A stretch of DNA of 64,000 nucleotides from Prevotellaceae bacterium UBA6858 (GTDB lineage Bacteria; Bacteroidota; Bacteroidia; Bacteroidales; Bacteroidaceae), in the NCBI GenBank assembly GCA_002451695.1, contig DKDC01000001.1, positions 19,961 to 83,960 on the forward strand, given 5' to 3'. Each line of letters begins with the position of its first letter. Position 1 is the first letter of the stretch. Below, piece after piece: positions 28,447 through 43,875 of this stretch. Below the pieces are notes generated by a model. The model was not told the origin of the DNA. It worked only from the letters and a program-made list of their open reading frames with translations, and did no database searches. The position numbers and the translations under genes are program-made.

Positions 28447-28490
28447 AAACATTCCGTTGAGAACTTATTCTTGACGGAATGTTTGTTTTC
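28447..28490 (+). terminator. Rho-independent terminator after tRNA-Tyr
   Basis: Stem AAACATTCCGT / ACGGAATGTTT followed by GTTTT. Confidence 0.7.
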
Positions 28491-28531
28491 ATATTCCTAC
28501 CGCAAACCACTTTGTTCTCAAAAATATGTTG

Positions 28532-28539
28532 TACTTTTG
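28532..28539 (+). promoter_or_regulatory. -7 promoter box TACTTTTG upstream of the glycosyltransferase gene
   Basis: Exact TAnnTTTG, 24 nt upstream of the ATG at 28563. Supports the shorter start. Confidence 0.5.
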
Positions 28540-28562
28540 ATAATGCAAATACAAAACAGCCA

Positions 28563-29591
28563 ATGAACTGCTACGCATCGCACAACTACCGCGATTTTTC
28601 GCACGCGGGGAACATCTCCAAGAATTTCAACGAACGCATAATGCAGGATATGGGGTTCAGGAATGCCGCCCTCAAGCAGACGCATTTCCACAATAAAGTC
28701 CTCGGTTTTTTCGCCACCCTTGCAGGGGTGTGCGTAATACCGTTCCGTCTGCACAAGGGCGACCGTCTCGTGTTGCAATATCCCGTGAAAAAGTACTACA
28801 CTCTCATCTGCAAAATGGCTCATTGGCGCGGCGCAAAAGTAATCACGCTTATCCACGACCTTGGATGCTGCCGACGCAAGCGGCTCACGCCCGAAAAAGA
28901 AATGAGACGCCTGAGAAATTCCGACGCGCTTATCGTTCACAACAACAACATGAAGCGTTGGATTGAGGAACACGCCTACAAGGGGGGCGTTGCCGTCCAT
29001 AAAATGACGGACTATCCCGCCGAGGCTCAAGCAACCGTCCACAAATACAGCGGCGGCAAACCAAAAGTCCTGTATGCCGGTGCGCTGCCAAAGAAAAAAA
29101 ACGCCTTTCTCTACGAACTTGCCGCGCAGGACATAAATTACGACATAGAACTTTACGGCAGGGGCTTTGACGGGACGCAAATAAAAAACGACTGCGTTCA
29201 CTACCACGGATTTGTGAGCGACACGGTTCTCATTTCGCAAAACAACTGCGATTTCGGGCTTGTATGGGACGGCGATTCGCTTGACGGATGCGAAGGCCCA
29301 TACGGCAGCTACCTGAAACTCAACAACCCGATAAAGACATCGCTATACATCCGCTGCCACCTTCCCGTGATTGTATGGGAGCAAGCCGCCATTGCCGAAG
29401 TTGTGAAAGAGAAAGAAATCGGCATTTGCGTGGCTTCGCTGCACGACCTTGACAAAACCCTTGCCCAAATCACACCCGAGGAATACGACAAGCTCGAACG
29501 CAACGTGATTGAGTGGAGCAAGGAACTGAAAAACGGCAACTGCACGCGAAATGCCATAAACGAATGCCTTGCATACCTGCAAGGGAAATAG
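28563..29591 (+). CDS. WbbI-like beta-1,6-galactofuranosyltransferase-family glycosyltransferase
   Basis: The C-terminal block FGLVWDGDSLDGCEGPYGSYLKLNNPIKTSLYIRCHLPVIVWEQAAIAEVV closely parallels E. coli WbbI (FGLIWDGDS...GEYLKFNNPHKTSLYL...PVFIWDKAA) from memory. Start set at MNCYASHNYRDFSHAG. Confidence 0.7.
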   Translation: MNCYASHNYRDFSHAGNISKNFNERIMQDMGFRNAALKQTHFHNKVLGFFATLAGVCVIPFRLHKGDRLVLQYPVKKYYTLICKMAHWRGAKVITLIHDLGCCRRKRLTPEKEMRRLRNSDALIVHNNNMKRWIEEHAYKGGVAVHKMTDYPAEAQATVHKYSGGKPKVLYAGALPKKKNAFLYELAAQDINYDIELYGRGFDGTQIKNDCVHYHGFVSDTVLISQNNCDFGLVWDGDSLDGCEGPYGSYLKLNNPIKTSLYIRCHLPVIVWEQAAIAEVVKEKEIGICVASLHDLDKTLAQITPEEYDKLERNVIEWSKELKNGNCTRNAINECLAYLQGK

Positions 29592-29675
29592 GGGTATAGG
29601 GGCTGTGTCATAAGATATTTGCCGCATTTCCTCACATACGCCAAGCAAATACATAATACACAAGCAGCCAACAAA

Positions 29676-29870
29676 TTGCGCCGCCGTAGGGGCGTATGGC
29701 ATACGCCCCGAGTTGCGCCGATTGGCGATATTGTGGCATCGCTTTGCGATGCGGTTTGTGCGGTGGGGTAAAGGGCGCATGCAATACGCCCCTACAATTT
29801 CCGCAAAACTTGTTCAGACACTCCGCATTCTCTCCTTCCGAAAACTACATCGGACATGGAAAAAACTATG
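29676..29870 (-). repeat. Composite intergenic repeat, copy 6a (reverse orientation; long module B + partial module A)
   Basis: Palindromes at about 29686-29709 and 29772-29796. Reverse-oriented units at 29839-29870. Confidence 0.9.
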
Positions 29871-29931
29871 TCTGATGTAGTATGAATTATGTCTGATATA
29901 ATTTTTTCTACATAGGACATAGTTTTCGCCC
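29869..29931 (+). repeat. Composite intergenic repeat, copy 6b (forward module A, three units, abutting 6a head to head)
   Basis: Units TGTCTGATGTAGTATGAATTA, TGTCTGATATAATTTTTTCTA and CATAGGACATAGTTTTCGCCC. Confidence 0.9.
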
Positions 29932-30114
29932 TTTGCATCATACTGAAAAACAAGACGTTATTCTTCGCACAACCTTACAACGTAAAACTTTGCAATTCAA
30001 GCCTTTACGCTGTTTTGACATTTAGTGGCAACCGCACGAAACACTCCGCCACTCTACCACCCCTAACATTCTGTGGAAATTGAAATCACGACCGCAAGCG
30101 TTGGCGAAAGTGGC

Positions 30115-30146
30115 AAAAAACAGGGCGTGTGCAAATACACACGCCC
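30115..30146 (-). terminator. Rho-independent terminator ending the ftsZ-yqeY transcription unit
   Basis: On the minus strand, stem GGGCGTGTG / CACACGCCC is followed by TGTTTTTT. Confidence 0.75.
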
Positions 30147-30192
30147 ATATTCTTTTACCGTTAAATTATCTGTCAACAAAGCTGGCACGATG

Positions 30193-30211
30193 CGGCGTAT
30201 TGCATACGCCC
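30193..30211. repeat. Solo REP-like hairpin (GGCGTAT-TGC-ATACGCC)
   Basis: Same palindromic core as module B, found without module A, 42 nt downstream of the yqeY stop. Confidence 0.8.
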
Positions 30212-30252
30212 ACCAATCCGTCGCGAAATCAGCGCATGCCCGGTTATGCCTC

Positions 30253-30702
30253 TTATGCCAGAAGTTTCCTGACTATTTCGGATATTATCCTGCCGTCGGC
30301 CTTGCCGGCAAGCGTTTTTGTCGCTGCCCCCATCACCTTTCCCATGTCGCGCATGGACGTTGCGCCAACGCTTGCTATTATCGCCTTGACCTCTTTCTCC
30401 ACTTCCCCGTCTGAAAGCTGTTTTGGCAAATACGCCTCTATCACCTTAACCTGCGCCTCCTCTTCTTCGGCAAGATCGGCACGGTTCTGCCCGTGATACA
30501 AAGCAGCCGTGTCTTTCCCCTGCTTTGCCATTTTGGCAAGGATTTTCAGAGCCGCATCGTCCGAAAGCTCATCATTTGCCCCGGGGGCGGTCTTTGCCTC
30601 TATGAAATTCTTCTTGATGTTGCGCAATGCCTCAAGGCGCACCTTGTCGTGCGCCTTCATTGCCGCCATTATGTCTTTGCTAATCTGTTCAAACAATGCC
30701 AT
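30253..30702 (-). CDS. yqeY: GatB/YqeY domain protein
   Basis: 149 aa. MALFEQISKDIMAAMKAHDKVRLEALRNIK... is typical of the YqeY family. Confidence 0.85.
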   Translation of the reverse strand: MALFEQISKDIMAAMKAHDKVRLEALRNIKKNFIEAKTAPGANDELSDDAALKILAKMAKQGKDTAALYHGQNRADLAEEEEAQVKVIEAYLPKQLSDGEVEKEVKAIIASVGATSMRDMGKVMGAATKTLAGKADGRIISEIVRKLLA

Positions 30703-30715
30703 TGTATTTGTGTTT

Positions 30716-32032
30716 TTAGAATTTTATCGCACCCGTGTCCGCCGGTGTCTCCGCGTCATTGGAACGTTCCGCCACCGCGCCGCCGTAGTTTTTCTCGTAT
30801 ATGCGCCGCAACATCGCGCTGCTGCGGTGCGCTGTAGGAGTTTGCTCCACCATTGATATTATGTCATCGTTGTCGATGTCAACGTCGTTGAAACGGAAAA
30901 CATGGTGAGGGCGGCGGTAAGCTCCCGCACGGCTTTTGTCCTCATAGCCGAACTTTTTGCGCCGTTCCGCCTTCTTCTCCTCCTCTTCCGCAGCCTGTGC
31001 CGCCCGTTCCGACTCATCGCCGCCATTGCGTATGAGGTATTCCTCCATATACGGCACATTTGCCAGCCCGAACCCCGAAGCCAGCACAGTAACCTTGACC
31101 TGCTTGCCAAGAGACGGGTCGAAAGCTATGCCCCACTTCACCTCGAAATCCCTGCCGAACTTGCTCATGAAATCATGAACCTCGTTCATTTCCTCCATCG
31201 TGATGGTGTCCTCGTCCTTGTCGGAGCAGTATATGTAAAGCAGCACCTTCTTGGCGTCGAAAATGTCGTTGTTGTTGAGCAGCGGGGAATTGAGCGCATC
31301 GTCTATGGCGCTCTTCACACGAAGTTCGCCCTCGCCTGTACCCGTGCTCATTATGGCAACGCCGCCGTCGCGAAGCACGGTGCACACATCGTTAAAGTCG
31401 AGGTTTATCTTGCCGTGGGTTGTTATAATCTCGGCTATGCTTCTTGCCGCAAGCGTCAGAGTGTCGTCAGCACGGCCGAAAGCGTCGCTGATTGTAAGTT
31501 CCGGGTATATCTCGCGCAAACGCTCGTTGTTGACCACAAGCAAAGCGTCAACATTCTTTGATATGGCCTCCACGCCGTCCAAAGCCTGGTCTATCTTGCG
31601 GTTTCCCTCAAATTGGAATGGAATGGTAACGATGCCAATCGTGAGGATGTTTTTGCTTTTGGCCTCACGCGCTATAATCGGGGCTGCACCTGTACCTGTG
31701 CCGCCGCCCATGCCGGCTGTGATAAACACCATTTTCGTGCCGTCCGAAAGCATCTTGTCGATAGATTCTATGCTCTCCTCCGCCGCATGGCGCGCCTTTT
31801 CGGGGATGTTTCCCGCTCCAAGGCCCTCGCTTCCCAACTGCACCTTAAACTGCACGGGAGAATCGTCCAAAGCCTGCGCGTCCGTGTTGCAAACCACGAA
31901 ACTCACATCGTGTATTCCTGTTTGGTACATATGGTTGACGGCATTCCCGCCGCCGCCGCCAACACCTATTACTTTTATTATATGAGGGTTGCCCGTTCTG
32001 AAGGCAAAGTCAACTATTTGATTATCGTCCAT
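30716..32032 (-). CDS. ftsZ: Cell division GTPase FtsZ (canonical-looking copy, 438 aa)
   Basis: GVGGGGGNA, NTDAQAL, GLGAG, GGGTGTG, PFQFEG and T7 loop NLDFNDV are all present. Long C-terminal linker plus tail motif. Confidence 0.93.
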   Translation of the reverse strand: MDDNQIVDFAFRTGNPHIIKVIGVGGGGGNAVNHMYQTGIHDVSFVVCNTDAQALDDSPVQFKVQLGSEGLGAGNIPEKARHAAEESIESIDKMLSDGTKMVFITAGMGGGTGTGAAPIIAREAKSKNILTIGIVTIPFQFEGNRKIDQALDGVEAISKNVDALLVVNNERLREIYPELTISDAFGRADDTLTLAARSIAEIITTHGKINLDFNDVCTVLRDGGVAIMSTGTGEGELRVKSAIDDALNSPLLNNNDIFDAKKVLLYIYCSDKDEDTITMEEMNEVHDFMSKFGRDFEVKWGIAFDPSLGKQVKVTVLASGFGLANVPYMEEYLIRNGGDESERAAQAAEEEEKKAERRKKFGYEDKSRAGAYRRPHHVFRFNDVDIDNDDIISMVEQTPTAHRSSAMLRRIYEKNYGGAVAERSNDAETPADTGAIKF

Positions 32033-32050
32033 TTTCCTGTGATTTTATAG

Positions 32051-33409
32051 TCAGTTGCCGAAATATATTTTGCCGTTGGCTGAACCCGAATACGCTTCTT
32101 CTGCGTTTTCACGTGCCTCCGTCCCGGCATAATCGTCAGACTGCCGTTGTATATTCTTCAAAGTCTCGTACCTGCGCGATTGCGTGTTGCTGTCCGAAAC
32201 CATGTCAATTACATCTTCGTTGTCGAGGTCACTGTCCGAAAACCTGTAAACAAGGTGGGAACGCCTCTGCCTGCTCATCACCTTGGGGTAGAAAATCTCT
32301 CGGCGGCGGTTGCGCACCTCCTGCACCTCTGGAGACTCTGCACCACTCCCGACAACCTCTGCCGGCAACTCCTGCCGCATATCGTCAGACACATAAGGCT
32401 GGGTTGCCAGTCCGAAGCCAGATGCAAGAATTGTAACCCTTATCTTGCCCCCCATTTCCGGCACATACGCCAGTCCCAGCTTGGTGTCGAACTCCCGGTT
32501 TACAAACTTGTCCATGAACTCATGAAGTTCGCCGGTTTCCTGCATCGTTATGGACTCCTCGTTTTTGTCGGACGTGTATATGGCTATCGTGGCGCGGCGG
32601 GCGTTAAAAATGTCGTTGTCGTTAAGCAACGGCGACTCAATGGCATTCTTTATTGCTTCCGAAACACGGTTCTCACCCTCCGCCTCGCCTGTGCTTATCA
32701 ACGCTATACCGCCATTTTTAAGCACTGTGTTCACATCGTTGAAGTCAAGATTCCAGTGCATCGGCGTTGTTATTATATCTGCAATGCTCTTCACCGCCAC
32801 AAACAACGTGTCATCGGACATCCGCAACGCCTCTATCCAGGTTTTGAACGCGCATATCTCGCAAAGACGCTCGTTGTTGATGACAAGCAGCGAGTCCACG
32901 TATTTTGACAGTTCGTAAACGCCGTCGAGCGCACGGTCTATTCTCAATTCGCGCTCCATGGCAAAAGGAATGGTTACTATGCCCACGGTAAGCATACCCG
33001 CCTTTTTGGCTTCGCGGGCTATTACAGGAGCCGCGCCTGTGCCTGTGCCGCCGCCCATGCCAGCTGTGATGAAAACCATCCGCGTGCCGTCGCAAAACAT
33101 CTTTTGTATCTCGTCAAGACTGTCTTCGGCAATCTTACGCGCCTTTTCGGGATTGCTTCCCGTTCCAAGTCCCTCCGAGCCTAACTGGCGGCGGATTGGC
33201 ACTGGGTTTCTTTCAAGATCCATGCGGTCGGTATTGCAAACCTCGAAACGCACATTGTGAAGTCCTTCTTCGTACATACGGGCAACGGCATTGCCACCGC
33301 CACCGCCAACACCTATCACCTTTATTATGCGGGGGTCGCTTGCAGACACAACCTCGCTTTCCTTTGGCAGGTTAAAATCTATGGTAGCATTGTCTTCTGA
33401 TACGCTCAT
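32051..33409 (-). CDS. Second, diverged FtsZ paralog (452 aa) immediately downstream of ftsA
   Basis: GVGGGGGNA, GGGTGTG and T7 NLDFNDV are retained. NTDRMDL, GLGTG, PFAMER and EALRMSDD deviate from consensus. About 60 percent identity to the downstream copy over the core, by hand alignment. Confidence 0.9.
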   Translation of the reverse strand: MSVSEDNATIDFNLPKESEVVSASDPRIIKVIGVGGGGGNAVARMYEEGLHNVRFEVCNTDRMDLERNPVPIRRQLGSEGLGTGSNPEKARKIAEDSLDEIQKMFCDGTRMVFITAGMGGGTGTGAAPVIAREAKKAGMLTVGIVTIPFAMERELRIDRALDGVYELSKYVDSLLVINNERLCEICAFKTWIEALRMSDDTLFVAVKSIADIITTPMHWNLDFNDVNTVLKNGGIALISTGEAEGENRVSEAIKNAIESPLLNDNDIFNARRATIAIYTSDKNEESITMQETGELHEFMDKFVNREFDTKLGLAYVPEMGGKIRVTILASGFGLATQPYVSDDMRQELPAEVVGSGAESPEVQEVRNRRREIFYPKVMSRQRRSHLVYRFSDSDLDNEDVIDMVSDSNTQSRRYETLKNIQRQSDDYAGTEARENAEEAYSGSANGKIYFGN

Positions 33410-33461
33410 CGTTCTGCTTTTTGAAATAAAAACAAGTGCAGCAAATCAAGTCCGCGCATTG

Positions 33462-34868
33462 TCATTCATCGGGGCTTACCACCTTGTCTGCGGTCTCCTT
33501 TACCTTCTTTGCCATATTTTTGAACCACGAGGAAATCCTACCGGGCTTTTTCGGTTCTTCAGACACATCCTCTTTTGTTACTTTCGGCTTTTTGTTCAAG
33601 TCGTCAACATTGTCCTTAGTTTCCCCAACCGCGCTTTCTTCAGGTTTTTCGCCATCAAACAGACCTTGGTCTTCGGAAATTGCATCGCCTGCGCATTCCT
33701 CCTTACCCAATGAAAGCAAAGAAAGAATGGCATTGAGAGAACCATCGGCACGTTTGGCTTCCTGGAACTTGGCGTTTACCTGAAAATTAACAAACTTGGC
33801 GAACCTTATCTTCTCCTCCCCTATTTTGGTGAACTGCTTGAACGCCTTGCCCAAATCGCGGAGATTTGAGCCGCCGCCGGTAAGTACGGCACCGCTTATC
33901 AAATCCTCGTTCACCTTCAAACCGGAACGGCGTATCTGCTCTTCTACATTAACAAGTATCTCCTCCATTCGGGCTTCGATTATCTCATTAAGCTCGCGTG
34001 CCTTTATTTCCCGCCCGTCGCTCAGCTTGTATGTTGCATCGTTTGCCTCGTCAACGTTTTCCTTTTCGGGAAAAGCAGAACCGTGGTTGCGTTTCAACGC
34101 TTCAGCCTCAGACTTCTCTATTCTGAAAACCGAGGCTATGTCTTTTGTTATGTTGTCCGAGCCAAGAGGTATAACGGCAAGGCGGCGCAATAGCTTGGAA
34201 GAATAAATTGCTACAGTCGTGGTGTCCATGCCAAAGTCCACAAGAACACAACCCGTGCGTTTTGCGTCCATACTAAGCAAGCCGTCCCCAAGCACGATAG
34301 GAGTCATCATGTATTCCACTTTCTTGAAACCGGCGCGCATAAGGCAGTCTTTTATTTTCTCGTAAAAGTCATGCCTGTAGAACACATTAAGAAAACTTCC
34401 TTCCAGCCTGTCGGTAACAACTCCCACCACCGAGGATGACGAAGTTTGGCGTTGCTTTCCCAGATAATAGTCTTGCGGAATTATTTTTGTAAGCCAATAT
34501 TTCCTTATGTCCAGTTCGCGGTCTTCCTCGTACAAGGCATCAACAATATCCTGCGTTACCTTTGTTTCCGCGTCAAACTCACGCGTTACCGTATTCAATA
34601 CAGAATGCAGGCTCTGCCCGCCTATGCAAACGTAAACCTTGGATATGTTTCGCTTGACCGCATCCTGAAGACGCAATTTTATATTCTTAAGGCATTCCGT
34701 GGCTTGATCCAAATTGTGTGCGTAGCCTCGCTTGATGCAGGCGTTTGAATCCTCTTGGGCATATGCCATTATCTGAATGCTACTGTCCGCCATTCTCCGG
34801 CCAATCATTCCTGTTATCTTTGACGAGCCTATCTCTATAGCAGCTATAAAATTGTCTGTTGTAGCCAT
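33462..34868 (-). CDS. ftsA: Cell division protein FtsA
   Basis: Actin-fold motifs (IAAIEIGSSKITG, VLVDFGMDTTTVAIY, VLTGGGSNL). C-terminal amphipathic tail. Confidence 0.92.
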   Translation of the reverse strand: MATTDNFIAAIEIGSSKITGMIGRRMADSSIQIMAYAQEDSNACIKRGYAHNLDQATECLKNIKLRLQDAVKRNISKVYVCIGGQSLHSVLNTVTREFDAETKVTQDIVDALYEEDRELDIRKYWLTKIIPQDYYLGKQRQTSSSSVVGVVTDRLEGSFLNVFYRHDFYEKIKDCLMRAGFKKVEYMMTPIVLGDGLLSMDAKRTGCVLVDFGMDTTTVAIYSSKLLRRLAVIPLGSDNITKDIASVFRIEKSEAEALKRNHGSAFPEKENVDEANDATYKLSDGREIKARELNEIIEARMEEILVNVEEQIRRSGLKVNEDLISGAVLTGGGSNLRDLGKAFKQFTKIGEEKIRFAKFVNFQVNAKFQEAKRADGSLNAILSLLSLGKEECAGDAISEDQGLFDGEKPEESAVGETKDNVDDLNKKPKVTKEDVSEEPKKPGRISSWFKNMAKKVKETADKVVSPDE

Positions 34869-34875
34869 ATTTATA

Positions 34876-35601
34876 TTATTTCTTGCATATTATCTGATTG
34901 TCGTACTCTAAATCTATCCTGGAATATTTGTTCCAGCCAACCTGCGGCAAAACCTGGGAATAAAAAGCCTTTAGCCGCTTAAGTTTCTGCGGAATTCCGC
35001 CCGGCTGTCCGATGTAAACCACGTGGTTGCCTATTCTCGGGTAAAGCTCCACGTTTCCTGCGGTGTCAACGCTAATCTGCTCTATCTGGCTGTCCCAAAA
35101 CTTGTCGTATTTCAGCAAACGCCCTATCGGCAAAAGTTTTGAATGGGCGTACTGCCTTGATATATGCCCTGTGGCCACAACCAAGTCTGCGGAATAGTGC
35201 ATATGCGGCATTATCTTCCCCCGGGTGTCCATATAATAATTGTCACCGTTATCGCTAATCACCCTCATGACGGGCAGACGCTGCGTCACGGTTACATAAA
35301 CGCGGTCTCCCGCTGTTTTGTAGCTTGTCGTGTTGTCTATGAAAGGATTCTTTGCAAGCACCTTCTCAATCTCGGCACAATTAATGCCGTTCATCTTCTT
35401 CCCTATCGGATACACCTTTGCCTCTTTGAGTATCGCGCGTATCTCGGAGGGCGTGATAAACCCCGCCACGTCGCTGTCTTTCACTACCACCTCCACCGCA
35501 GCGCAATGCTGCCGCATTTCGGGATTGTTAAGCACAGTAACAGCCAGCCCCAGATATACGGCAAGGGCGAGCAGCAACAACAACTTCAGCAGGTTCTTCA
35601 T
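34876..35601 (-). CDS. ftsQ: Cell division protein FtsQ
   Basis: Single N-terminal transmembrane helix plus a POTRA-like domain. Position between murC and ftsA. Confidence 0.8.
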   Translation of the reverse strand: MKNLLKLLLLLALAVYLGLAVTVLNNPEMRQHCAAVEVVVKDSDVAGFITPSEIRAILKEAKVYPIGKKMNGINCAEIEKVLAKNPFIDNTTSYKTAGDRVYVTVTQRLPVMRVISDNGDNYYMDTRGKIMPHMHYSADLVVATGHISRQYAHSKLLPIGRLLKYDKFWDSQIEQISVDTAGNVELYPRIGNHVVYIGQPGGIPQKLKRLKAFYSQVLPQVGWNKYSRIDLEYDNQIICKK

Positions 35602-35603
35602 TT

Positions 35604-36983
35604 TCAGCTGCGCGGAAGCAGGATTTTTGTTATTTCGGGAGTCATGTTGTCCAAATCGCCCGCCCCCAAAATCAGAAGCACGTCAACGTCCATGCTGCGA
35701 ACAACATCAAGCACCTCGTCCTTGCGTATCAGACGTTTCTTCATGCCGGGACGCAAATTATCGTATATCAAACGGCTTGTTACGCCGGGTATAAGGCGTT
35801 CACGCGCCGGATAGATTTCGGTAAGCACAACCTCGTCGAGCAAAGAAAGACTATTGGCAAAGTCTTTATAAAAATCGCGGGTGCGGGAATAAAGGTGGGG
35901 CTGGAATATAGCGGCTATCCTGCGTCCTTTGAACACCTTGCGCACGGAGCTGATGCATTGCTCTATTTCTTTGGGATGGTGTGCGTAGTCGCTTATCAGC
36001 ACAATCTTGTCGGTGTTTATCTTTATGTCGAAGCGGCGTTCCACCCCCGAGAACGTACGCATTCCCTCGCGTATGTCCTCTGCCGAAACCCCGGCTATCT
36101 GGGCGAGAGCCATTGCCGCCACACCGTTTTCAATGTTAACGTAAACAGGCACGCCCAAATCGATGTTGGTAATGTTTCCCAACGGCGAAACCAAGTCAAA
36201 CATAATCCTGCCGTTGCCAATGCGTATGTTTTCCGCATGGAAATCGCCCGCATCCACACCGTAGTCATAAAAGCGCACGCCGTCCTTCAACTGTGGCTTC
36301 AGGGCAATGTCCTTGTGCATCACGAGTGCGCCTCCCTTGCGGATAAGCGACGTGTATTTCTCAAAACTCTCAATATACGCCTCGTGCGTTCCGTATATAT
36401 CCAAATGGTCGGCATCAACGGCGGTAATCACCGAAGCATACGGCGTGAGCTGGTGGAACGAGCGGTCGTACTCGTCAGCCTCAATCACGACATAGGGGCT
36501 TGAGGAATTAAGCAGGTAGTTTGTGCCGTAGTTCTTGGATATTCCGCCAAGGAAAGCATTGCAGCCCACATGGCTTTGATGGATTATGTGCGCCGCCATT
36601 GTCGAGGTGGTGGTTTTGCCGTGGGTCCCCGCCACACACAGTCCGCGATATGCGCGTGTGAGTGTTCCGAGAACCTGTGCGCGCTTCACCACGTCATAAG
36701 CCATGTTTCTGAAATACCCCAGCACCTTGTTGTCCGCAGGTATTGCCGGCGTATATACCACAAGGGTGTTCCTCGGATTTTTGAATTCCGAGGAAATCTC
36801 ATCGGGGTCATCGTCATACTGCACTTTCGCGCCCTCAGCCTTCAGGCGTTCCGTGAGCACCGACGGAGTTTTGTCATATCCGCCCACCGGCGTTTCCCTC
36901 GACAGGAAATACCGTGCAATTGCGCTCATTCCGATACCGCCGATACCTATAAAATACACTGCCTTTATATCATTCAAATCCAT
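35604..36983 (-). CDS. murC: UDP-N-acetylmuramate--L-alanine ligase
   Basis: VYFIGIGGIGMSAIA, GTHGKTTTS. Start set at MDLNDIKAVYF (36983). An upstream ATG at 37034 would overlap murG by 14 nt. Confidence 0.92.
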   Translation of the reverse strand: MDLNDIKAVYFIGIGGIGMSAIARYFLSRETPVGGYDKTPSVLTERLKAEGAKVQYDDDPDEISSEFKNPRNTLVVYTPAIPADNKVLGYFRNMAYDVVKRAQVLGTLTRAYRGLCVAGTHGKTTTSTMAAHIIHQSHVGCNAFLGGISKNYGTNYLLNSSSPYVVIEADEYDRSFHQLTPYASVITAVDADHLDIYGTHEAYIESFEKYTSLIRKGGALVMHKDIALKPQLKDGVRFYDYGVDAGDFHAENIRIGNGRIMFDLVSPLGNITNIDLGVPVYVNIENGVAAMALAQIAGVSAEDIREGMRTFSGVERRFDIKINTDKIVLISDYAHHPKEIEQCISSVRKVFKGRRIAAIFQPHLYSRTRDFYKDFANSLSLLDEVVLTEIYPARERLIPGVTSRLIYDNLRPGMKKRLIRKDEVLDVVRSMDVDVLLILGAGDLDNMTPEITKILLPRS

Positions 36984-37020
36984 TTCTGTCTCAGTTTTTA
37001 GTTTTATTTTAGTTGTTTGT

Positions 37021-38130
37021 TCATTTCCCGGCAAGCGCCATGACTTCCTTCGCTATTATTTTAGCGGAATCGGGAAGGGCGAGTGCCTTTATGTTTTTGC
37101 CGAGGCTTGCCAAAAGCGCGTTGTCCGCCACTGCGTTCAGCGCACGCGGGATTAAGGTGCGCACGGCATCCGCGTCCTTCACATAGAGTGCGGCGTCGCG
37201 TGTGGTCAGAGCCAAAGTGTTTTTGGTCTGATGATCCTCCGCCACATTGGGCGACGGAACGAGTATCGCCGGCTTGCCCAAAAGCTGCAGCTCCGAAATG
37301 CTGCCCGCCCCCGAACGCGACACAACCAAGTCGGCAGCGCGGTAAGCCACCGCCATGTCCGAGATGAACTCCAGCACGGCAAGGTTTTCGGGCTTGCCTC
37401 TCTTTGCAAGCTCCTCCTGCACCGATGCGCTGTAATACTTTCCTGTCTGCCACACAAACTGCGCATCGCTCTGCTTTATCAGCACCAAGTTGTTCAGCAC
37501 AGCCTCATTCATGGTTCTCGCGCCCAGGCTGCCGCCTATAATCAGTATGGTTTTCTTTGCCGGGTCGAGACCGAAAGTCTTTACGGCATCCTCACGGCTC
37601 ACTTTGCAATCGAGCAGGTTCTGCCTCACAGGGTTTCCCGTCAGGATTATCTTGTCCTTAGGGAAAAAGCGTTCCATTCCGTCGTATGCCACGCATATCC
37701 TGTCGGCTTTTTTCGCGAGCAGCTTGTTTGTTACGCCCGCATAGGAGTTTTGCTCCTGTATAAGCGTGGGTATGCCCATAGCCTGCGCCTCATCAAGCGT
37801 GGGTCCGCTGGCATAGCCTCCCACCCCGACGGCAACCATTGGGCGGAAATCCTTTATTATGCGCTTCGCCAAGCTGCGGCTGCGCATTATCTTGAAAAGT
37901 GTCTTTATGTTGTTAAGAATGTGCTTTCTGTCAAAACCGCAAATCGGCAGTCCCTTTATCTCATATCCCGCTGCCGGCACACGCTGCATCTCCATTCGCC
38001 CCTCAGCCCCCACAAACAAAATTCTTGCATCGGGACACAAATCCCTCAGGGCGTTGGCTATCGAGACAGCCGGGAATATATGCCCCCCCGTACCGCCGCC
38101 GCTTATTATAACCCTTAATTCCTTATCCAT
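37021..38130 (-). CDS. murG: UDP-N-acetylglucosamine--LPS/lipid I N-acetylglucosamine transferase MurG
   Basis: SGGGTGGHIFPAVSIA and ...GGSLGART... motifs. Confidence 0.93.
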   Translation of the reverse strand: MDKELRVIISGGGTGGHIFPAVSIANALRDLCPDARILFVGAEGRMEMQRVPAAGYEIKGLPICGFDRKHILNNIKTLFKIMRSRSLAKRIIKDFRPMVAVGVGGYASGPTLDEAQAMGIPTLIQEQNSYAGVTNKLLAKKADRICVAYDGMERFFPKDKIILTGNPVRQNLLDCKVSREDAVKTFGLDPAKKTILIIGGSLGARTMNEAVLNNLVLIKQSDAQFVWQTGKYYSASVQEELAKRGKPENLAVLEFISDMAVAYRAADLVVSRSGAGSISELQLLGKPAILVPSPNVAEDHQTKNTLALTTRDAALYVKDADAVRTLIPRALNAVADNALLASLGKNIKALALPDSAKIIAKEVMALAGK

Positions 38131-38300: not shown

Positions 38301-39056
38301 TTATTTCACTACGCCCTCGCAAACCACAGGCTGGTTGGTTGTGATGTAGTCAACGCCTGCGTCCACGAGTTCCTTCATTTGCTTAGGGTCGTCAACAGTC
38401 CAAATGTTAACCTTCAGTCCCAGTTTGTGAGCCTCGCCTATCCAGTCCCAATGCTTTTTGATGTGCCCCCAAGAATAGTCCAGGCCGGCGGCCCCCATCT
38501 CTTTAAGCTGGCGCGGCGAAAGTTCTCCGTTGAGATAGTAAACCTCGGTGCCTTTTGGGACTTCGGAAAGCAGTTTTACCATTGCAGGGAGGGAGAAAGT
38601 GATATAGGTTACGCGCTTGGTCAGCTTGTATTCCTTGAACAGCTTCAAGGTCTGCTCCACACACTTCAGGGTACGCGCCACGTCCTTGTGCGGCTTTATC
38701 TCGCATACAAGCTGCGTCTTCAGCTTCTTGCCAAGCGCGAGATACTCCTGCAACGTGGGGATTCTCTCACCGTTGGCAAGGGGGTGCTTCATAAGCTCGT
38801 CATAAGTCGCGTCCTCAATGATGAGGTCCTTCACATTGGCATCGTGGTGAACCACAATCTTGTTGTCCTTCGTAAGCCAAATGTCAAACTCACTGCCGTA
38901 GCACTTCACGGAATCCGCCTTGGCGAGCGCGGCCAGACTGTTCTGCGCCGAGCCTTCGGTTGTCCAAAAGCCGCGATGAGCCACAACTTTTGTCTGCGCC
39001 ACGGCAAAACCCGCCACCAAAAGCGACAGCGAAACTGCCAATACTCTATTTTTCAT
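38301..39056 (-). CDS. Secreted glycerophosphodiester phosphodiesterase
   Basis: Signal peptide present. AHRGFW...SLAAL...GSEFDIWLTKDNKIVVHHD is the GDPD catalytic motif. Confidence 0.85.
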   Translation of the reverse strand: MKNRVLAVSLSLLVAGFAVAQTKVVAHRGFWTTEGSAQNSLAALAKADSVKCYGSEFDIWLTKDNKIVVHHDANVKDLIIEDATYDELMKHPLANGERIPTLQEYLALGKKLKTQLVCEIKPHKDVARTLKCVEQTLKLFKEYKLTKRVTYITFSLPAMVKLLSEVPKGTEVYYLNGELSPRQLKEMGAAGLDYSWGHIKKHWDWIGEAHKLGLKVNIWTVDDPKQMKELVDAGVDYITTNQPVVCEGVVK

Positions 39057-39214
39057 TCCTTATAGTTTTTAGTTACGGCAAAAGTAACCATTTTTGCTTG
39101 AACATCCAAAACTGCAAATCCTTTGTTTTGACAATAATTCCGGCTGAAACACAGCATTTTTCACAACCCATTGGTTTGCAAAACCATACCCACAATTTAG
39201 CCGATATTGTAAGT

Positions 39215-39481
39215 TTTTGTTTTTCAAAGGTTTGCAGTTGGCGAAAAAAGGTCTGATGTAGTTTGGATTATGTCTGATGTAATTTTTTCTACATCGGACA
39301 TAGTTTTTCCTGCATCAAATGTAGTTATAGCGGTATTGGTTTTGCACCGTTTGTAGGGGCGTATTGCATTGTCCCATACACCAAACGCACGAGGCACATC
39401 GCCACAAAAGCGAGCCAACTCTGTTTTTATGGCAAATCAGCACAATCCGTGCGTATGCAATAAGCCACTACGGCGGCGCAA
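39215..39481 (+). repeat. Composite intergenic repeat, copy 8 (module A + degenerate long module B)
   Basis: Units at 39250-39333. GTAGGGGCGTATTGCAT... at 39353 and ...GCGTATGCAATAAGCCACTACGGCGGCGCAA ending at 39481. Confidence 0.9.
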
Positions 39482-39569
39482 TTCATTGGTTGGCCTTATA
39501 TTAGGCATTCACAGAGGCACATTGTTCTAATCAGCCCAAACGGACAAGCACATAAAAACTTTGGACTAC

Positions 39570-39601
39570 GAAAAAAGGAACTTCGCAATGAAGTTCCTTT
39601 T
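39570..39601 (-). terminator. Rho-independent terminator after tRNA-Cys
   Basis: Stem AAAGGAACTTC / GAAGTTCCTTT, with T6 on the minus strand. Confidence 0.7.
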
Positions 39602-39608
39602 GATTTTG

Positions 39609-39679
39609 AGGTGCCAAGCAGATTCGAACTGCTGTACACGGTTTTGCAGACCGTTACCTAGCCACTCGGTCATGGCACC
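39609..39679 (-). tRNA. tRNA-Cys (GCA)
   Basis: Minus strand: acceptor GGTGCCA/TGGCACC, anticodon arm ACGGT-CTGCAAA-ACCGT, T-arm AGCAG-TTCGAAT-CTGCT, and discriminator U73 typical of tRNA-Cys. Confidence 0.9.
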
Positions 39680-39698
39680 GTTGTGTTGTTTGCGGATG

Positions 39699-39706
39699 CA
39701 AAAGTA
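39699..39706 (-). promoter_or_regulatory. -7 box TACTTTTG (minus strand) upstream of tRNA-Cys
   Basis: Exact TAnnTTTG, 20 nt upstream of the mature tRNA 5' end. Confidence 0.5.
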
Positions 39707-39736
39707 AGAAATTAAGCCGAAACAGCCAAACGCCGC

Positions 39737-40342
39737 CTAAAATTTCTTTCCTGCAAATATCATTTTAGCCGTGAGGAGAATGATTTTCATATCCCCCCAA
39801 AGCGAGCGCGTCCTCAAATACTCAAGATCCATGTTGAGGCGTTGCAGCATTTTCTCCATTGTGTCGGTATATCCGTTGAAGAGCGTCGCCATCGACGTAA
39901 GCCCCGGGCGCATCAGGTATATAAAGCGATACCTTGCGTCGCGTTCCATTATCTTGTCGATGAAAATCTTCCTTTCGGGGCGCGGGCCGACTATGCTCAT
40001 GTCGCCCTTCAGCACATTAAGGAGCTGCGGAAGTTCGTCAAGGTGGTGAATGCGCAGGAACTTGCTGAAGCCGGTAACGTGCGCCTTGTCCTCGCATGGC
40101 GTGAGCCGCGGGCCGTTGTCCTCAAAGCCCTCGCTCAATGTGCGGAACTTGTAAATCATAAACGGTTTGCCGCCAAGCCCTATACGCTCCTGCCTGAAAA
40201 TGACGCTGCCTTTTTCGGTCAGTTTCAGCCTCAACGCTATATACAAGTACAGCGGCGTTGACAAAAGCATGACCACCGCCGCCCCGACAAAGTCGCACAG
40301 TCGCTTCACCGCCTTTGCCGGAGCGCACATATTGTCAGCCAT
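39737..40342 (-). CDS. Bacterial sugar transferase (polyprenyl-phosphate hexose-1-phosphate transferase, WbaP/EpsL C-terminal type)
   Basis: KRLCDFVGAAVVMLLSTPLYL...GSVIFRQERIGLGGKPFMIYKFRTL...DELPQLLNVLKGDMSIVGPRPE. Start set at MADNM (40342); the longer ORF start at 40498 is unlikely. Confidence 0.85.
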   Translation of the reverse strand: MADNMCAPAKAVKRLCDFVGAAVVMLLSTPLYLYIALRLKLTEKGSVIFRQERIGLGGKPFMIYKFRTLSEGFEDNGPRLTPCEDKAHVTGFSKFLRIHHLDELPQLLNVLKGDMSIVGPRPERKIFIDKIMERDARYRFIYLMRPGLTSMATLFNGYTDTMEKMLQRLNMDLEYLRTRSLWGDMKIILLTAKMIFAGKKF

Positions 40343-40452
40343 TTCGGCAGGTGCGCTGCCAGTTTCAATTGTTTTTATATTTTGCACTCTCTCAGATATC
40401 CCTTTTAATAATATATAACTTTGCGTTAATCTTTTTATTGTGCCGCCGCCGG

Positions 40453-41820
40453 TTATTTGGGGTGCTTTATCGGTTCCAGCACTATCTCGGAACGCCATGC
40501 GTCATGCGCGGAATAAACCACCGTGGCATATTTGTTCAACAGCCCATGCAATTTTCCGCCAAACAGCCCTTCGACAAACGGTGTATGCGCAATGGAGCGC
40601 GGAAAGGCTTTTGCATAGCACAATCTGCCTTTTGTATCATGGGGAAAAACAAGCGGCACGCCTTCTGCGGCTTTTCCCCCCGCCTTTGCGCCGTAACGGC
40701 ACAAAAGCCGTCCGTCCTTCCTCACGCCAAACTCAAAACTTTTTCCGTTGAGTGAGCACTTGTAGCCTCCGTCCGAAGTCCTCTCCGGCTTGCCTTGGGG
40801 GTTGTCCTTTTTCCATTGGGAAATGCCGTCAAGAAACGAGGCATCCTTTATTTCCGCCACAAGCGAAAAATTCATGCCGCCTTTTCCGTCAATGCCGTCA
40901 AGCGACAAGAGCGCGTCGCCGTCAATGCCGCCGATTATTTTTCCGAAATCCGCCACAACATTCATTGCCGCCCAAAATCCTTTTGCCGACCTGTCGGCAC
41001 GGAGTCGTTCGGCGAGTTTCCTTCCGTCAATGCCCATAAACGCATAAGCCATTGAGCCGCCCGTCAGCCGCTCCCCATCCATTCCGCCCCTATACGGTTT
41101 CAGCCCGGACGGCTTCGGCAATTCGCCGCCATCCGCCGCCGTCAGCTCGTTCTTCATTACAATTTTCCCGCCCGCGCCAAACGAACAGGAAGATTCAAGC
41201 AAAACGGAATCCGCGTCAGCCTCTCCCAAAACTTGCAGGGACAGCATGGTGCGCAATACGGACGGCAAGGACGAAAGCCGCGCCACGAGTTTTGCGCCGC
41301 CCGGCATTTTCTCCAGTCTGCCAAACAAATCGCTGCTACCAATGCCGCCGCCGCTTTTGAACATCGCACTCACCGTGCGGCGCATGAAAGACTGCTCTCC
41401 CGCCACCACAGGCCCGATGACAAGCAGCGCACCGCCGTTCCACGCCATCTGCCAATTTGATTTCCACACCGCCCAATGCAACCCCGAACTGTTGTCCCTC
41501 TGCGAAAATTCCTTGGATGCCGAAACCGCATCCAGCACATCCTTTTCATCGTCCACCGCCACAACCACGCCATAATAGCCGCCCGGCGAAACGAAAGCGT
41601 AAGCCGGCTGCGTAAGGTCTATCCCGGACGTGAACGGCAGCACATTCTTCATGCCATTCAAGCCACTTTCCGTTTCCGCCGCTATCTGCGCAAAATCAAG
41701 CGAGGCTACAGCCGGCGACGACTCGGGGATTATGTCGTAATAAGCCTTGCCGCACGACGACAACGCCATGGCAAGCGCCACGGCAAACACACTTTTGAAA
41801 AACTTGCGCATTGTGTTCAT
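40453..41820 (-). CDS. Putative lipoprotein (DUF4836-like, family assignment tentative)
   Basis: Start set at MNTMRKFFKSVFAVALAMALSSC (lipobox). This ATG overlaps the rsmE stop as ATGA. The 84-codon upstream extension lies inside rsmE. Confidence 0.65.
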   Translation of the reverse strand: MNTMRKFFKSVFAVALAMALSSCGKAYYDIIPESSPAVASLDFAQIAAETESGLNGMKNVLPFTSGIDLTQPAYAFVSPGGYYGVVVAVDDEKDVLDAVSASKEFSQRDNSSGLHWAVWKSNWQMAWNGGALLVIGPVVAGEQSFMRRTVSAMFKSGGGIGSSDLFGRLEKMPGGAKLVARLSSLPSVLRTMLSLQVLGEADADSVLLESSCSFGAGGKIVMKNELTAADGGELPKPSGLKPYRGGMDGERLTGGSMAYAFMGIDGRKLAERLRADRSAKGFWAAMNVVADFGKIIGGIDGDALLSLDGIDGKGGMNFSLVAEIKDASFLDGISQWKKDNPQGKPERTSDGGYKCSLNGKSFEFGVRKDGRLLCRYGAKAGGKAAEGVPLVFPHDTKGRLCYAKAFPRSIAHTPFVEGLFGGKLHGLLNKYATVVYSAHDAWRSEIVLEPIKHPK

Positions 41821-42587
41821 TCCAATGCCCATGACATTTTGGAGTTTTTCAAGTTCATCAGCATAACGGAGTACAGTGCCGCCGTTTCCGTGCGCAGACG
41901 GCTCTCGCCCAAACTCACGGGAATAAAGCCGTTGCGTATTGCCTGTTCCACCTCTTCGGGGGCGAAATCCCCTTCCGGACCAATGACCACCGTCTTTCCG
42001 CCGCCGCCCATCACCGCCGGCAAGTAGCAGCGCGGCGAAGCCACGGTGATTTCCCCGGAAAGCTCCCGGCAAACCTCCCCGTTAAGACAGTGTGCAATGT
42101 ATTTCTCACCCGAAATGTCGGGACGCGCAACAAACTCCCCGAAAGGCGCAAGGGCGTTCACCCTCGGCATTTGCGCCTTTCGGCTCTGCTTCATTGCCGA
42201 AACTACGATGCGCTCTATCCTTTCGGGCTTCAAAACCCTGCGCTCCGAAAAGCGGCAGTCTATAAAGGATATTTCATCAACGCCAATTTCCACGGCTTTC
42301 TCCACGAGCCATTCCGTGCGGTCCATGTTCTTTGTAGGGGCTACGGCAATGTGCAAATGCCCGCTCCACGGGCTTTCCGCCTTCCTCGTGTCCGTAATGC
42401 TGTAACTGCACGAGCGCGAAGAAACACCCGACACCTCGGCATCATAAAAGCAGCCGCAGCCGTCGGTTATGACAATGCGGTCGCCCACACCCAGGCGCAG
42501 CACCTTCACGGCATGGCGCGCCTCCTCATCGGGGAGTTCGCTTTTAACTCCCGCGTCAGGCACATAGAAATAATGTATTTCTTTCAT
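41817..42587 (-). CDS. rsmE: 16S rRNA (uracil1498-N3)-methyltransferase RsmE
   Basis: MKEIHYFYVP...HAVKVLRLGVGDRIVITDG...IGPEGDFAPEEV...LGESRLRTETAAL are RsmE hallmarks. Confidence 0.88.
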   Translation of the reverse strand: MKEIHYFYVPDAGVKSELPDEEARHAVKVLRLGVGDRIVITDGCGCFYDAEVSGVSSRSCSYSITDTRKAESPWSGHLHIAVAPTKNMDRTEWLVEKAVEIGVDEISFIDCRFSERRVLKPERIERIVVSAMKQSRKAQMPRVNALAPFGEFVARPDISGEKYIAHCLNGEVCRELSGEITVASPRCYLPAVMGGGGKTVVIGPEGDFAPEEVEQAIRNGFIPVSLGESRLRTETAALYSVMLMNLKNSKMSWALE

Positions 42588-42642
42588 CGCTGCACAAACA
42601 ATCGTGCAAAGTTACTCAAAACTTTCCTAACCCCGAATACGC

Positions 42643-42676
42643 AAAAAGGGATTGGGGCGTAACACCCCAATCCCCC
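42643..42676 (-). terminator. Rho-independent terminator after the J-domain gene
   Basis: Stem GGGATTGGGG / CCCCAATCCC with T5 on the minus strand. Confidence 0.75.
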
Positions 42677-42694
42677 TATATGCCATTACTGCTT

Positions 42695-43393
42695 TCAGTT
42701 GCCGGCAGCCCGCATCTGCTCCAAAAGCTCGCGCTGGCGGTCGTTGAGCGAAGCCGGCATTGTTACGTTGTAAGTGATTATCAAGTCGCCGTATGTGCCG
42801 TCGCCCTTGTCATAGCCTTTGCCTTTAAGGCGCACTTTCGCCCCCTGCTGAGTGCCGGGCTTTACGCGCAGCCGCAGCTTGGAACTTTGGGTCTGCAGAA
42901 TAATCTCGCCGCCCAGCAACGCCGTGTACATATCTATGTTTACCGTGGCGTGGGCATCGGCATCGGACTGTGCGCCAAATCCCGAGCCGCCCATTCCGAA
43001 CCCGCTGTACGAGCGAGAACTTCTGCGCCTCGCACCGCCGAAAAGCTGCTCGAAGAAACTTGAGAAACCGCTGCCGCCGCCACCTTCAAACTGGCTGAAG
43101 TCAAAGCCGCCGGAAGCAGAAGAATCTCCTCCCCCGCCAAAGCCGCCGGCCTGCTCATAAGCGTCCGCCTGTTCCCATTTCTCGCCATATTTGTCATATT
43201 TCCTGCGCTTTTCCGGGTCGCTCAACACATTGTTGGCCTCGTTCAAAGCCTGAAACTTGGCCTTCGCCTTGGGGTCGTCAGGATGCAGGTCGGGGTGGAA
43301 CTGCTTTGCACGGCGCATATAAGCCGCACGAATGTCCTTTTGCGGGGTATCCTTCGGGATACCCATTATCTTGTAGTAATCTATGAATGCCAT
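42695..43393 (-). CDS. J-domain protein (CbpA/DnaJ-like, no zinc-finger domain)
   Basis: DYYKIMGIPKDTPQKDIRAAYMRRAKQFHPDLHPDD (HPD motif), a Gly-rich linker, and a DnaJ C-terminal-like beta domain. Confidence 0.85.
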   Translation of the reverse strand: MAFIDYYKIMGIPKDTPQKDIRAAYMRRAKQFHPDLHPDDPKAKAKFQALNEANNVLSDPEKRRKYDKYGEKWEQADAYEQAGGFGGGGDSSASGGFDFSQFEGGGGSGFSSFFEQLFGGARRRSSRSYSGFGMGGSGFGAQSDADAHATVNIDMYTALLGGEIILQTQSSKLRLRVKPGTQQGAKVRLKGKGYDKGDGTYGDLIITYNVTMPASLNDRQRELLEQMRAAGN

Positions 43394-43511
43394 ATTTCTT
43401 AACTCCTTTCGTATATGCTACAGCAAAAGAAATGCCACAGGAGCAAACAAGGCAAACAATCTTCGCCCGCCCGCCCCATGCAAGTGCGCGGAACACAACA
43501 AACCAACGAAC

Positions 43512-43790
43512 TCCACCGCCGTAGGGGCGTATTGCATACGCCAAATATGCGCGGATTTGCAATGCTGCAACGGCGGTTTGCGATGCGGTTCATGCAGATG
43601 CGTACAGGGCGTATGCAATACGCCCCTACAAATGGCGAAAAACCTTAATCGCCCATCCTTTCCCAAACACCGCGAAAATTACATTTGAGGAGGAAAAACT
43701 ACATCGGACGTAGGAAAAATTATTTCAGACATAATCCAAACTACATCAGACCTTTTTTCTCCCCTGCGCAATGCTTTGAAAAACAAACCG
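43512..43790 (-). repeat. Composite intergenic repeat, copy 9 (reverse orientation, module A + long module B)
   Basis: Module B at 43512-43640 (palindromes at about 43520-43542 and 43606-43629). Four units at 43669-43752. Left flank extends to about 43790. Confidence 0.92.
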
Positions 43791-43875
43791 TTACAAAACA
43801 CTGCAACAATTTGCCAACTCTTTACAAATCAAAAGATTAGCTTTGGGATGCACGAGCGCCATTTGCCCGAACCGG

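Follow-up and report, generated by a model that had tools for sequence, protein, structure and literature searches.

In textbooks, bacterial division is organised by a single copy of FtsZ, which is also an antibiotic target. Stable systems with two FtsZ proteins are well studied in plastids and archaea; few are found in bacteria, where they are usually truncated and lie at a distance from the division and cell wall (dcw) cluster. Here we describe two full-length, diverged ftsZ genes that lie in tandem inside the dcw operon of Prevotellaceae bacterium UBA6858. The analysed stretch of DNA, called the window below, is 64,000 nucleotides in length (contig DKDC01000001.1, positions 19,961 to 83,960), and all coordinates without a locus label refer to it. 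The ftsA-proximal gene, ftsZ′, encodes FtsZp (p in short), the distal gene, ftsZ, encodes FtsZd (d), and canonical FtsZ is abbreviated as c. The pair is an old duplication, maintained by strong purifying selection, and FtsZp carries a set of fixed substitutions around the GTPase site. Such a long-kept full-length pair in the division operon, with fixed reciprocal changes at putative hydrolysis-rate residues, offers a natural experiment on splitting FtsZ turnover between two subunits.

Plastid FtsZ1 and FtsZ2 (FtsZB and FtsZA) are two full, GTPase-competent paralogs; they are co-expressed and co-assemble in one ring, which one of them stabilises and the other makes more dynamic (PMC12343686). 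The window pair would resemble them in these respects. Different from the window pair, the plastid pair is of independent cyanobacterial/eukaryotic origin and its genes are nuclear and unlinked; its co-assembly is demonstrated, whereas that of the window pair is presumed. In the archaeon Haloferax volcanii, FtsZ1 and FtsZ2 have distinct roles, ring assembly versus constriction, at one division site (bioRxiv 10.1101/2020.06.04.133736), and the archaeal duplication goes back as far as the last common ancestor of the archaea (PMC9871819). The archaeal genes are neither in tandem nor in the dcw cluster, whereas the window pair arose within one bacterial family. Like the plastid and archaeal paralogs, FtsZp and FtsZd each form their own orthologous clade (both with bootstrap 100, at least 10 lineages). 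Judged from the phylogeny, the FtsZp duplication is independent of the plastid and archaeal pairs, and the similarity would be one of functional analogy only.

Few bacteria have two ftsZ genes, and Santana-Molina et al. (2023, PMC9871819) place the additional one outside the dcw cluster in those surveyed. At least five independent bacterial ftsZ duplications have been reported, with paralogs that are often truncated (Randich et al. 2025); full-length paralogs are known from several bacteria as well. Agrobacterium has three homologs, FtsZ_AT, FtsZ1 and FtsZ3, two of which co-polymerise (bioRxiv 10.1101/412759; see also 10.1101/2025.09.29.679267 for alphaproteobacterial paralogs). Like FtsZp, the alphaproteobacterial paralogs are long-maintained; at least some of them localise at midcell, are active GTPases and form copolymers with the main FtsZ. 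However, the Hyphomicrobiales/Bipolaricaulota-type paralogs are truncated, lacking the linker and the C-terminal peptide, or lie outside the dcw cluster, whereas FtsZp of the window is full-length and encoded between ftsA and ftsZ.

The closest case is that of Segatella copri DSM 18205T, in which two ftsZ genes are redundant by antisense oligonucleotide (ASO) knock-down; S. sanihominis has a truncated second copy (Cosi et al., bioRxiv 10.64898/2026.04.17.719208, April 2026). Like the window organism, S. copri belongs to the Prevotellaceae and has two FtsZ; both contain a GTPase core as well as a C-terminal region, and both can serve division. However, it is of another genus, and Segatella FtsZ is far from the clade described here in our tree. 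The DNA signature of FtsZp (see below) has no match in any Segatella genome among the GTDB representatives. The ASO target sites imply the start contexts AGAAATGATGA and CGACTATGCTA, neither of which matches the start regions in the window. Compared by its own description, the preprint covers redundancy and strain-level presence or absence; it is silent on gene adjacency and on a conserved paralog clade. When the literature on Bacteroidota and Prevotellaceae was searched for ftsZ genes in tandem or side by side, nothing beyond this preprint came up. A preliminary description of the window, made from the letters alone, was aware of no tandem pair described in Bacteroidales; the literature searched agrees, with the 2026 preprint on two ftsZ genes in S. 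copri as a qualification. Two FtsZ in Prevotellaceae as such have precedent; for a full-length tandem pair that is conserved, lies inside the dcw operon and bears a fixed active-site signature, our search gave no description.

Two diverged FtsZ proteins encoded in tandem

The coordinates of the two genes and their 18-nt spacer, as given in the preliminary description, matched the reading of the open reading frames (ORFs) exactly:

32051..33409, minus strand: ftsZ′, encoding FtsZp, the ftsA-proximal fast-evolving paralog, 452 aa; Pfam Tubulin and FtsZ_C, TIGR00065 300.4 bits
32033..32050, minus strand: ftsZ′-ftsZ spacer of 18 nt, CTATAAAATCACAGGAAA, by direct sequence reading; without terminator
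30716..32032, minus strand: ftsZ, encoding FtsZd, the distal canonical-type FtsZ, 438 aa; TIGR00065 316.9 bits

Both proteins pass the ftsZ equivalog cut-off of TIGR00065, which is 295.2 bits. FtsZp and FtsZd score 133.6 and 141.4 bits with PF00091 (Tubulin), and 53.7 and 54.7 bits with PF12327 (FtsZ_C), respectively. In the core, 187 of 307 positions (60.9%) are identical, which reproduces an earlier hand count of 188/308; the overall identity is 51–53% (51% by full-length BLASTP). The two genes share 61% DNA identity overall and 44% at third positions, and they are alike in GC content and in third-position GC content (GC3). Gene conversion between the copies was considered, but there is no sign of it; the longest common exact word is 20 nt and lies in the G-box region.

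Conservation of the pair in related genomes

The exact window proteins occur on 36 (FtsZp) and 31 (FtsZd) contigs in the NCBI, JGI, ENA and Logan assemblies. When FtsZp was used as the query, a small set of closer homologs at 56–97% identity was followed by the bulk of canonical Prevotellaceae FtsZ at ∼50%. The order ftsA-FtsZp-FtsZd-yqeY was present in every fetched related locus extending past ftsZ′, ∼36 loci of at least 10 lineages (L001–L009, L010–L014, L019–L035 and L037–L039, where the contig extends). In these syntenic lineages, the proximal copies are 57–97% identical to window FtsZp: 91% in L001–L003, 75% in L004/L005, 63% in L006/L007, 61% in L008/L009, 64% in L037, 57% in L038 and 65% in L039. 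Among the loci examined, no FtsZp was found without an adjacent canonical FtsZ.

To follow the paralog at DNA level, a p-specific pattern was derived from the peptide signature M-x-x-N-x-D-F-x-D-V...G-G-I-A-L-I, which in the window matches positions 32696–32761. The pattern matches the proximal gene only, in the window and in all loci. It was found in 6 of the 185,579 GTDB species representatives, all of which are uncultured Prevotellaceae-type metagenome-assembled genomes (MAGs): Prevotellaceae bacterium UBA6398, uncultured Prevotella sp. UMGS1320, Prevotellaceae bacterium SUG1766, a Hadza gut MAG, the rumen MAG hRUG897 and a 4.7-kb contig in an ‘Oscillospiraceae’ bin. The tandem pair is present in all six where the contig permits. 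Another 17 matches are metagenome contigs, mostly labelled human gut, and all of them have the order ftsQ-ftsA-FtsZp-FtsZd-yqeY.

Within a clade of uncultured Prevotellaceae from gut and rumen, the pair is passed on vertically. That the duplication is old, and neither recent nor produced by assembly, agrees with the 31–36 independent contigs, the synteny in at least 10 lineages, the clade bootstrap of 100 (see below) and the DNA identity of 61%. Carrier Prevotellaceae are often assembled from human gut and rumen, and the pair bears on how ftsZ-targeted knock-downs and inhibitors in the family are interpreted; as the S. copri work shows, phenotypes can be hidden by a second copy. The p-specific signature and the identified lineages provide handles for cloning both proteins. 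One contig, L011 (CAVCON010000177.1, 4673 nt), has the ftsA-ftsZ′-ftsZ-yqeY genes of the window species, with protein identities of 97.6% and 98.9%; its deposition under an ‘Oscillospiraceae bacterium’ MAG is probably a binning error.

Phylogeny and selection

A bootstrapped neighbor-joining (NJ) tree was built from 315 core columns, with Phocaeicola FtsZ as the root. FtsZp forms one clade with bootstrap 100 and long branches. The partner FtsZd proteins form a compact clade, also with bootstrap 100, on short branches among the canonical Prevotellaceae FtsZ; its internal order is broadly congruent with that of the p clade. With the Phocaeicola outgroup, the p clade lies inside Prevotellaceae, adjoining the clade of its partners. 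The support of the node that unites the c and d clades, without p and a second divergent type q (described below), is only 53.5%. The best canonical matches of FtsZp are the partner clade, P0016–P0030. Taken together, the tree position, the best canonical matches and the similar GC and GC3 favour an in-place duplication in the ancestor of the group over horizontal acquisition. The preliminary description had proposed BLAST, phylogeny and synteny as checks; by these, the proximal copies are one clade arising inside Prevotellaceae, and ftsA-ftsZ′-ftsZ-yqeY is kept in the related loci that reach past ftsZ′.

Complete pairs with intact ORFs number 22 distinct cases. Ratios of nonsynonymous to synonymous substitution rates (dN/dS) were computed from one multiple alignment; at dS 0.3–1.2, which is unsaturated, they are 0.027–0.053 for FtsZp and ∼0.018 for FtsZd. 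In the same dS range, dNp/dNd is 2.3, consistently across pairs. FtsZp evolves ∼2.3–6 times faster than its partner, and the asymmetry grows with depth; the identity to the window is 57–75% for p versus 79–95% for d. In L004, the distal and proximal copies are 95% and 75% identical to the window copies, respectively; in L038, the values are 89% and 57%. The constraint on FtsZp is comparable to that on yqeY, tighter than that on ftsA and looser than that on FtsZd. FtsZp is maintained by strong purifying selection and is not decaying. A decaying duplicate, which had been raised in the preliminary description, is excluded for the clade as a whole by this purifying selection; one relative (L017) has lost the proximal copy.

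FtsA (33462–34868; homologs in L001–L008) is unusually fast in this clade. For the same genome pairs, its dN is 0.09–0.42, which is similar to or above that of FtsZp and far above that of FtsZd. Co-evolution of FtsA and the proximal paralog is a possibility.

Retained and altered residues of FtsZp

Residue counts for the p clade refer to 13 sequences. Canonical Prevotellaceae FtsZ has 164 columns with an invariance of at least 95%, and 122 of them are preserved in at least 90% of the p clade. Both window proteins have the T1 (GGGGGNA), T4 (GGGTGTG) and T7 (N-x-D-F-x-D) motifs, which are invariant or at least 90% conserved across p, the partners and the canonical proteins. Loss of the T7 Asp, as seen in P0012 (NQAFNDV), was rejected as a feature of the clade; the near-identical L027 has the D, and P0012 is a singleton variant or an error. 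The AlphaFold2 (AF2) model of FtsZp has a predicted local distance difference test (pLDDT) score of 85–93 in the core; in Foldseek comparison with S. aureus, E. coli and M. tuberculosis FtsZ, its target-normalised template modelling (TM) scores are 0.91–0.93, with a root-mean-square deviation of ∼2 Å.

Both window proteins also contain a linker, the Bacteroidales-type C-terminal box RRxHxVYRFxDxDLDNxDVI...T..R and a terminal I-x-F; the C-terminal peptide is assumed to bind FtsA in Bacteroidales. In plants, FtsZ2 alone is known to keep the C-terminal peptide; different from the plant pair, the window pair has the tail in both proteins. The p copies of L008 (6001–7266) and L012 end right after the C-terminal box, without the terminal I-x-F that all canonical copies keep. 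The terminal I-x-F tail is also absent from the q-type proteins P0194 and P0195. Tail loss in these p and q proteins would fit reliance on a tailed partner for membrane anchoring.

As quoted in the preliminary description, GGGTGTG, GVGGGGGNA and NLDFNDV are found in both proteins, and NTDRMDL, GLGTG, PFAMER and EALRMSDD in ftsZ′. The latter four were regarded there as losses of near-invariant motifs. All four are indeed changed in ftsZ′ of the window, but not all of them are near-invariant or typical of the paralog. The changes in NTDAQ (Q to non-Q, 12/13), in PFxFEG (G to R/K/M/L, 13/13) and in the residue before DD (A to S, 11–12/13) are clade-wide. Those in GLGAG, where A is replaced by T in 6/13 and by V in 3/13 and retained in 4/13, and the F to L change (6/13) are lineage-specific.

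Residues were numbered by alignment to Klebsiella FtsZ (PDB 9isk), the numbering of which we take to be that of E. coli FtsZ. The altered residues of the p clade are as follows, given as the FtsZp residue, the E. coli position, the substitution and its count:

M63; E. coli Q47 (T2 loop); Q to M/K/I/T/A/V; 12/13
R153; E. coli G139 (T5 loop); G to R/K/M/L; 13/13
R156; E. coli R142; K to R; 13/13
C186; E. coli L172; Y to C; 13/13
S198; E. coli A185; A to S; 11–12/13
V206; E. coli V193; A to V; 13/13
M217; E. coli G204 (directly ahead of T7); G to M; 13/13
I238; E. coli M225; M to I; 13/13
V316; E. coli D299; D to V/L/I/M; 13/13

The p clade also has a 7-residue N-terminal insertion. The changes of FtsZp cluster on the inter-subunit loops of the GTPase site, namely T2, T3, T5 and the residues flanking T7. 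Near the invariant G to M change, M206 is replaced by W in the window subgroup of FtsZp only; in E. coli, M206 is located in the T7 loop, and the M206I substitution alters subunit contacts (PMC4603965).

Two of the altered positions correspond to Q48 and R143 of S. aureus FtsZ (SaFtsZ). Q48 of the lower SaFtsZ subunit locks a K+ ion in the T7 loop of the upper one, and R143 behaves like an arginine finger (Ruiz et al. 2022, PMC8936486). The Q48A and R143K mutants still assemble, but their GTPase activity is ∼6-fold lower and their filaments are stabilised; R143Q is inactive (PMC8936486). In canonical FtsZ of Prevotellaceae and Phocaeicola, the two corresponding residues are Q and K, whereas FtsZp has a non-Q residue and R. 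On alignment, the difference is a fixed reciprocal swap at putative hydrolysis-rate residues, the effects of which are known for S. aureus FtsZ alone. FtsZp retains the GTP-binding and T7 residues, the fold and purifying selection, but two GTPase-tuning positions are changed; it is probably GTPase-active with altered kinetics. The earlier reading of both copies as active GTPases, given in the preliminary description, is thus far plausible.

A proposed model of two co-assembling FtsZ subunits and its alternatives

In our reading, an ancient tandem duplication of ftsZ took place inside the murG-murC-ftsQ-ftsA-ftsZ-yqeY operon. FtsZd stayed a slow-evolving canonical FtsZ, and FtsZp became a distinct, selectively maintained paralog. 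We propose that both proteins would enter the same Z ring and co-polymerise, and the four subunit interfaces (d-d, d-p, p-d and p-p) would hydrolyse GTP at differing rates. Like plastid FtsZ2/FtsZ1, the canonical copy may serve as the scaffold, with the paralog tuning filament stability and treadmilling. We give about even credence to the reading that the two are co-assembling FtsZ subunits with retuned kinetics. A stronger version, in which the ring is an obligate two-subunit structure of a canonical scaffold and a kinetically retuned, co-polymerising partner, is a tentative proposal and rather doubtful; it would be a bacterial counterpart of plastid FtsZ2/FtsZ1 that evolved in one gut family, possibly twice. 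The pair can be tested directly via synthetic genes; its functional significance is presumed.

Several points weigh against this model. The carriers are uncultured organisms, and the model was drawn from sequence and predicted structure. In the one experiment of the family, the ASO knock-down in S. copri DSM 18205T, the two FtsZ were redundant and not divided in labour. The effects of the Q48 and R143 residues were taken from the distant S. aureus FtsZ; the R143 position is K in all canonical Bacteroidales FtsZ examined, and the S. aureus effects fix neither direction nor size here. The faster evolution of p is equally expected from relaxed constraint on a redundant copy. L017 (4001–5779) has a lone ftsZ (P0030) between ftsA and yqeY, and P0030 nests in the partner clade, which implies a secondary loss of the proximal paralog; with its single ftsZ, L017 indicates that at least one lineage can do without the paralog.

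The same loss would be expected if the two genes were functionally redundant duplicates, with the second copy kept for dosage or back-up and the proximal one drifting faster under partly relaxed constraint. In S. copri, only simultaneous knock-down of both ftsZ genes gives filamentation, and the dN/dS of p is ∼2.3 times that of d. However, redundant copies seldom persist so deep; the p clade spans at least 10 lineages, in which d falls to 79% identity. The changes fixed in 13/13 sequences (K to R142, G to M204, Y to C, A to V and M to I) lie at active-site and interface loops and are not scattered as in drift, and the dN/dS of p, 0.03–0.05, is as tight as that of yqeY and tighter than that of ftsA. 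We consider plain redundancy unlikely, although it is the most serious of the alternatives. FtsZp might otherwise be a specialised or protective FtsZ, with a conditional or non-ring morphogenetic role, or an inhibitor-insensitive variant that would sustain division while a phage, toxin or SOS-type inhibitor acts on the canonical FtsZ. Its quick lineage-specific change on a conserved scaffold, saturating at 57–65% while d remains at 79–92%, fits such a role, and the truncated second ftsZ of S. sanihominis affects morphology and not division. The changed loops T3, T5, T6 and the T7 flank also overlap what we take to be regions bound by known FtsZ inhibitors. However, the gene lies between ftsA and ftsZ in one operon without its own promoter or terminator, which speaks against separate regulation; no inhibitor gene is linked to it in the window or in any fetched locus, and whole-gene dN/dS gives no sign of positive selection. 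Such a specialised role seems to us less probable still than redundancy.

The origin of the proximal copy was also considered. It could be a xenolog, acquired horizontally and inserted beside the resident ftsZ; the midpoint-rooted tree puts p outside all other sampled Prevotellaceae FtsZ, and the c+d node that excludes p and q has the support of 53.5% mentioned above. This origin is very improbable, as the Phocaeicola-rooted tree puts p inside Prevotellaceae beside its own partners, the top canonical matches of p are these same partners (P0016–P0030), p has the Bacteroidales-type C-terminal box and tail, its GC and GC3 match those of the neighbouring gene, and the junctions are devoid of mobile-element genes. 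An assembly artefact or a decaying pseudogene can be regarded as already refuted. Nothing in the window points to it; the hints come from frameshifts in a few low-coverage metagenome contigs (L022, L023, L026 and L030) and an in-frame stop in the distal copy of L038. On the other side stand the intact ORFs of the 22 complete pairs, the 61% DNA identity of the copies, the presence of the same pair in many independent assemblies and the strong purifying selection. Compared to these alternatives, the model of two co-assembling FtsZ subunits with retuned kinetics remains our preferred reading.

A second tandem pair and anomalous sequences

Another arrangement was found in L016 (4001–6619) and L036 (2648–5350), which contain ftsA, a canonical FtsZ (P0018/P0020), a divergent FtsZ of type q and yqeY. 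The q proteins P0194 and P0197 are 414 and 449 aa in size, respectively. Here q is distal and the canonical copy proximal, which is the reverse of the window order. The P0018/P0020 lineage is the closest canonical lineage to the partner clade. The q proteins retain the canonical Q47, K142, G139 and G204 and are without the indels of p; only three identical derived states are common to p and q. The NJ tree unites p and q with bootstrap 95.5, both being on long branches. Given the opposite order and the different substitutions, two independent tandem duplications in sister lineages appear more likely; a single duplication with a later order swap is the less likely alternative.

In L038 (2587–3930), the linker of the distal ftsZ has a single in-frame stop (EEEEK*AERRKKF), and the box and tail downstream are still in frame; as it occurs in one metagenome scaffold only, it may reflect faulty sequencing or a true truncation. 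P0196 (573 aa) and P0015 (549 aa) were considered as fusions or novel paralogs and rejected; they are canonical FtsZ in which a block is repeated internally, probably through faulty assembly. P0007 has a foreign FtsZ N-terminus on a p-type body, probably from a chimeric contig, and was excluded from the conclusions. P0005 (L005) is p-type and 29 residues shorter than the near-identical P0004, which is probably an assembly or gene-calling artefact.

Operon layout and flanking genes

The order murG-murC-ftsQ-ftsA-ftsZ′-ftsZ-yqeY, as read in the preliminary description, was borne out by Pfam and NCBIfam. In addition to the two ftsZ genes and their spacer, the operon has the following features:

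37021..38130, minus strand: murG, first gene of the truncated dcw block; Pfam Glyco_transf_28 and Glyco_tran_28_C
35604..37034, minus strand: murC; Pfam Mur_ligase, Mur_ligase_M and Mur_ligase_C
34876..35601, minus strand: ftsQ; Pfam FtsQ_DivIB_C, 25.2 bits (cut-off 21)
33462..34868, minus strand: ftsA; TIGR01174 185.8 bits (cut-off 175.85), Pfam FtsA
33410..33461, minus strand: ftsA-ftsZ′ spacer of 52 nt, by direct sequence reading; without terminator-like site
30253..30702, minus strand: yqeY (GatB/YqeY-domain protein), last gene of the operon, 13 nt past ftsZ; Pfam YqeY 149 bits
30123..30146, minus strand: intrinsic-terminator-like hairpin closing the operon; 10-bp stem with 7 G-C pairs, followed by the T-run TGTTTTTTGC

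In the terminator scan, the sole strong terminator-like hairpin of the operon is the one 3′ of yqeY. Owing to the short spacers and the lack of a terminator between the genes, we infer that ftsZ′ and ftsZ share one transcript. A sigma-70 promoter scan is uninformative for Bacteroidota, and an Rfam scan of the operon returned zero RNA families.

Upstream of murG (38301–51336, minus strand), the window encodes a GDPD phosphodiesterase, a bacterial sugar transferase, a DUF4836 protein, a DnaJ-like protein and a 2486-aa SprA of type IX secretion. The upstream neighbour of murG is the GDPD gene, and not ftsW or murD. The same GDPD-murG junction is present in L001, L004–L006 and L008; its recurrence across relatives indicates that the dcw cluster is split in this clade.

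The content 3′ of yqeY varies among relatives (window 28479–30250; L001, 11332–13657; L004, 9202–11593; L006, 9352–13113). The window and L001 have a 370-aa ORF, which has no Pfam match in the window and whose L001 homolog is called Gtf3-like; L001 additionally contains a DDE transposase fragment. In L004/L005, this region contains GmrSD/HNH and an EcoRI-type methylase, and in L006 it contains DMP19, SmpB and MetH.

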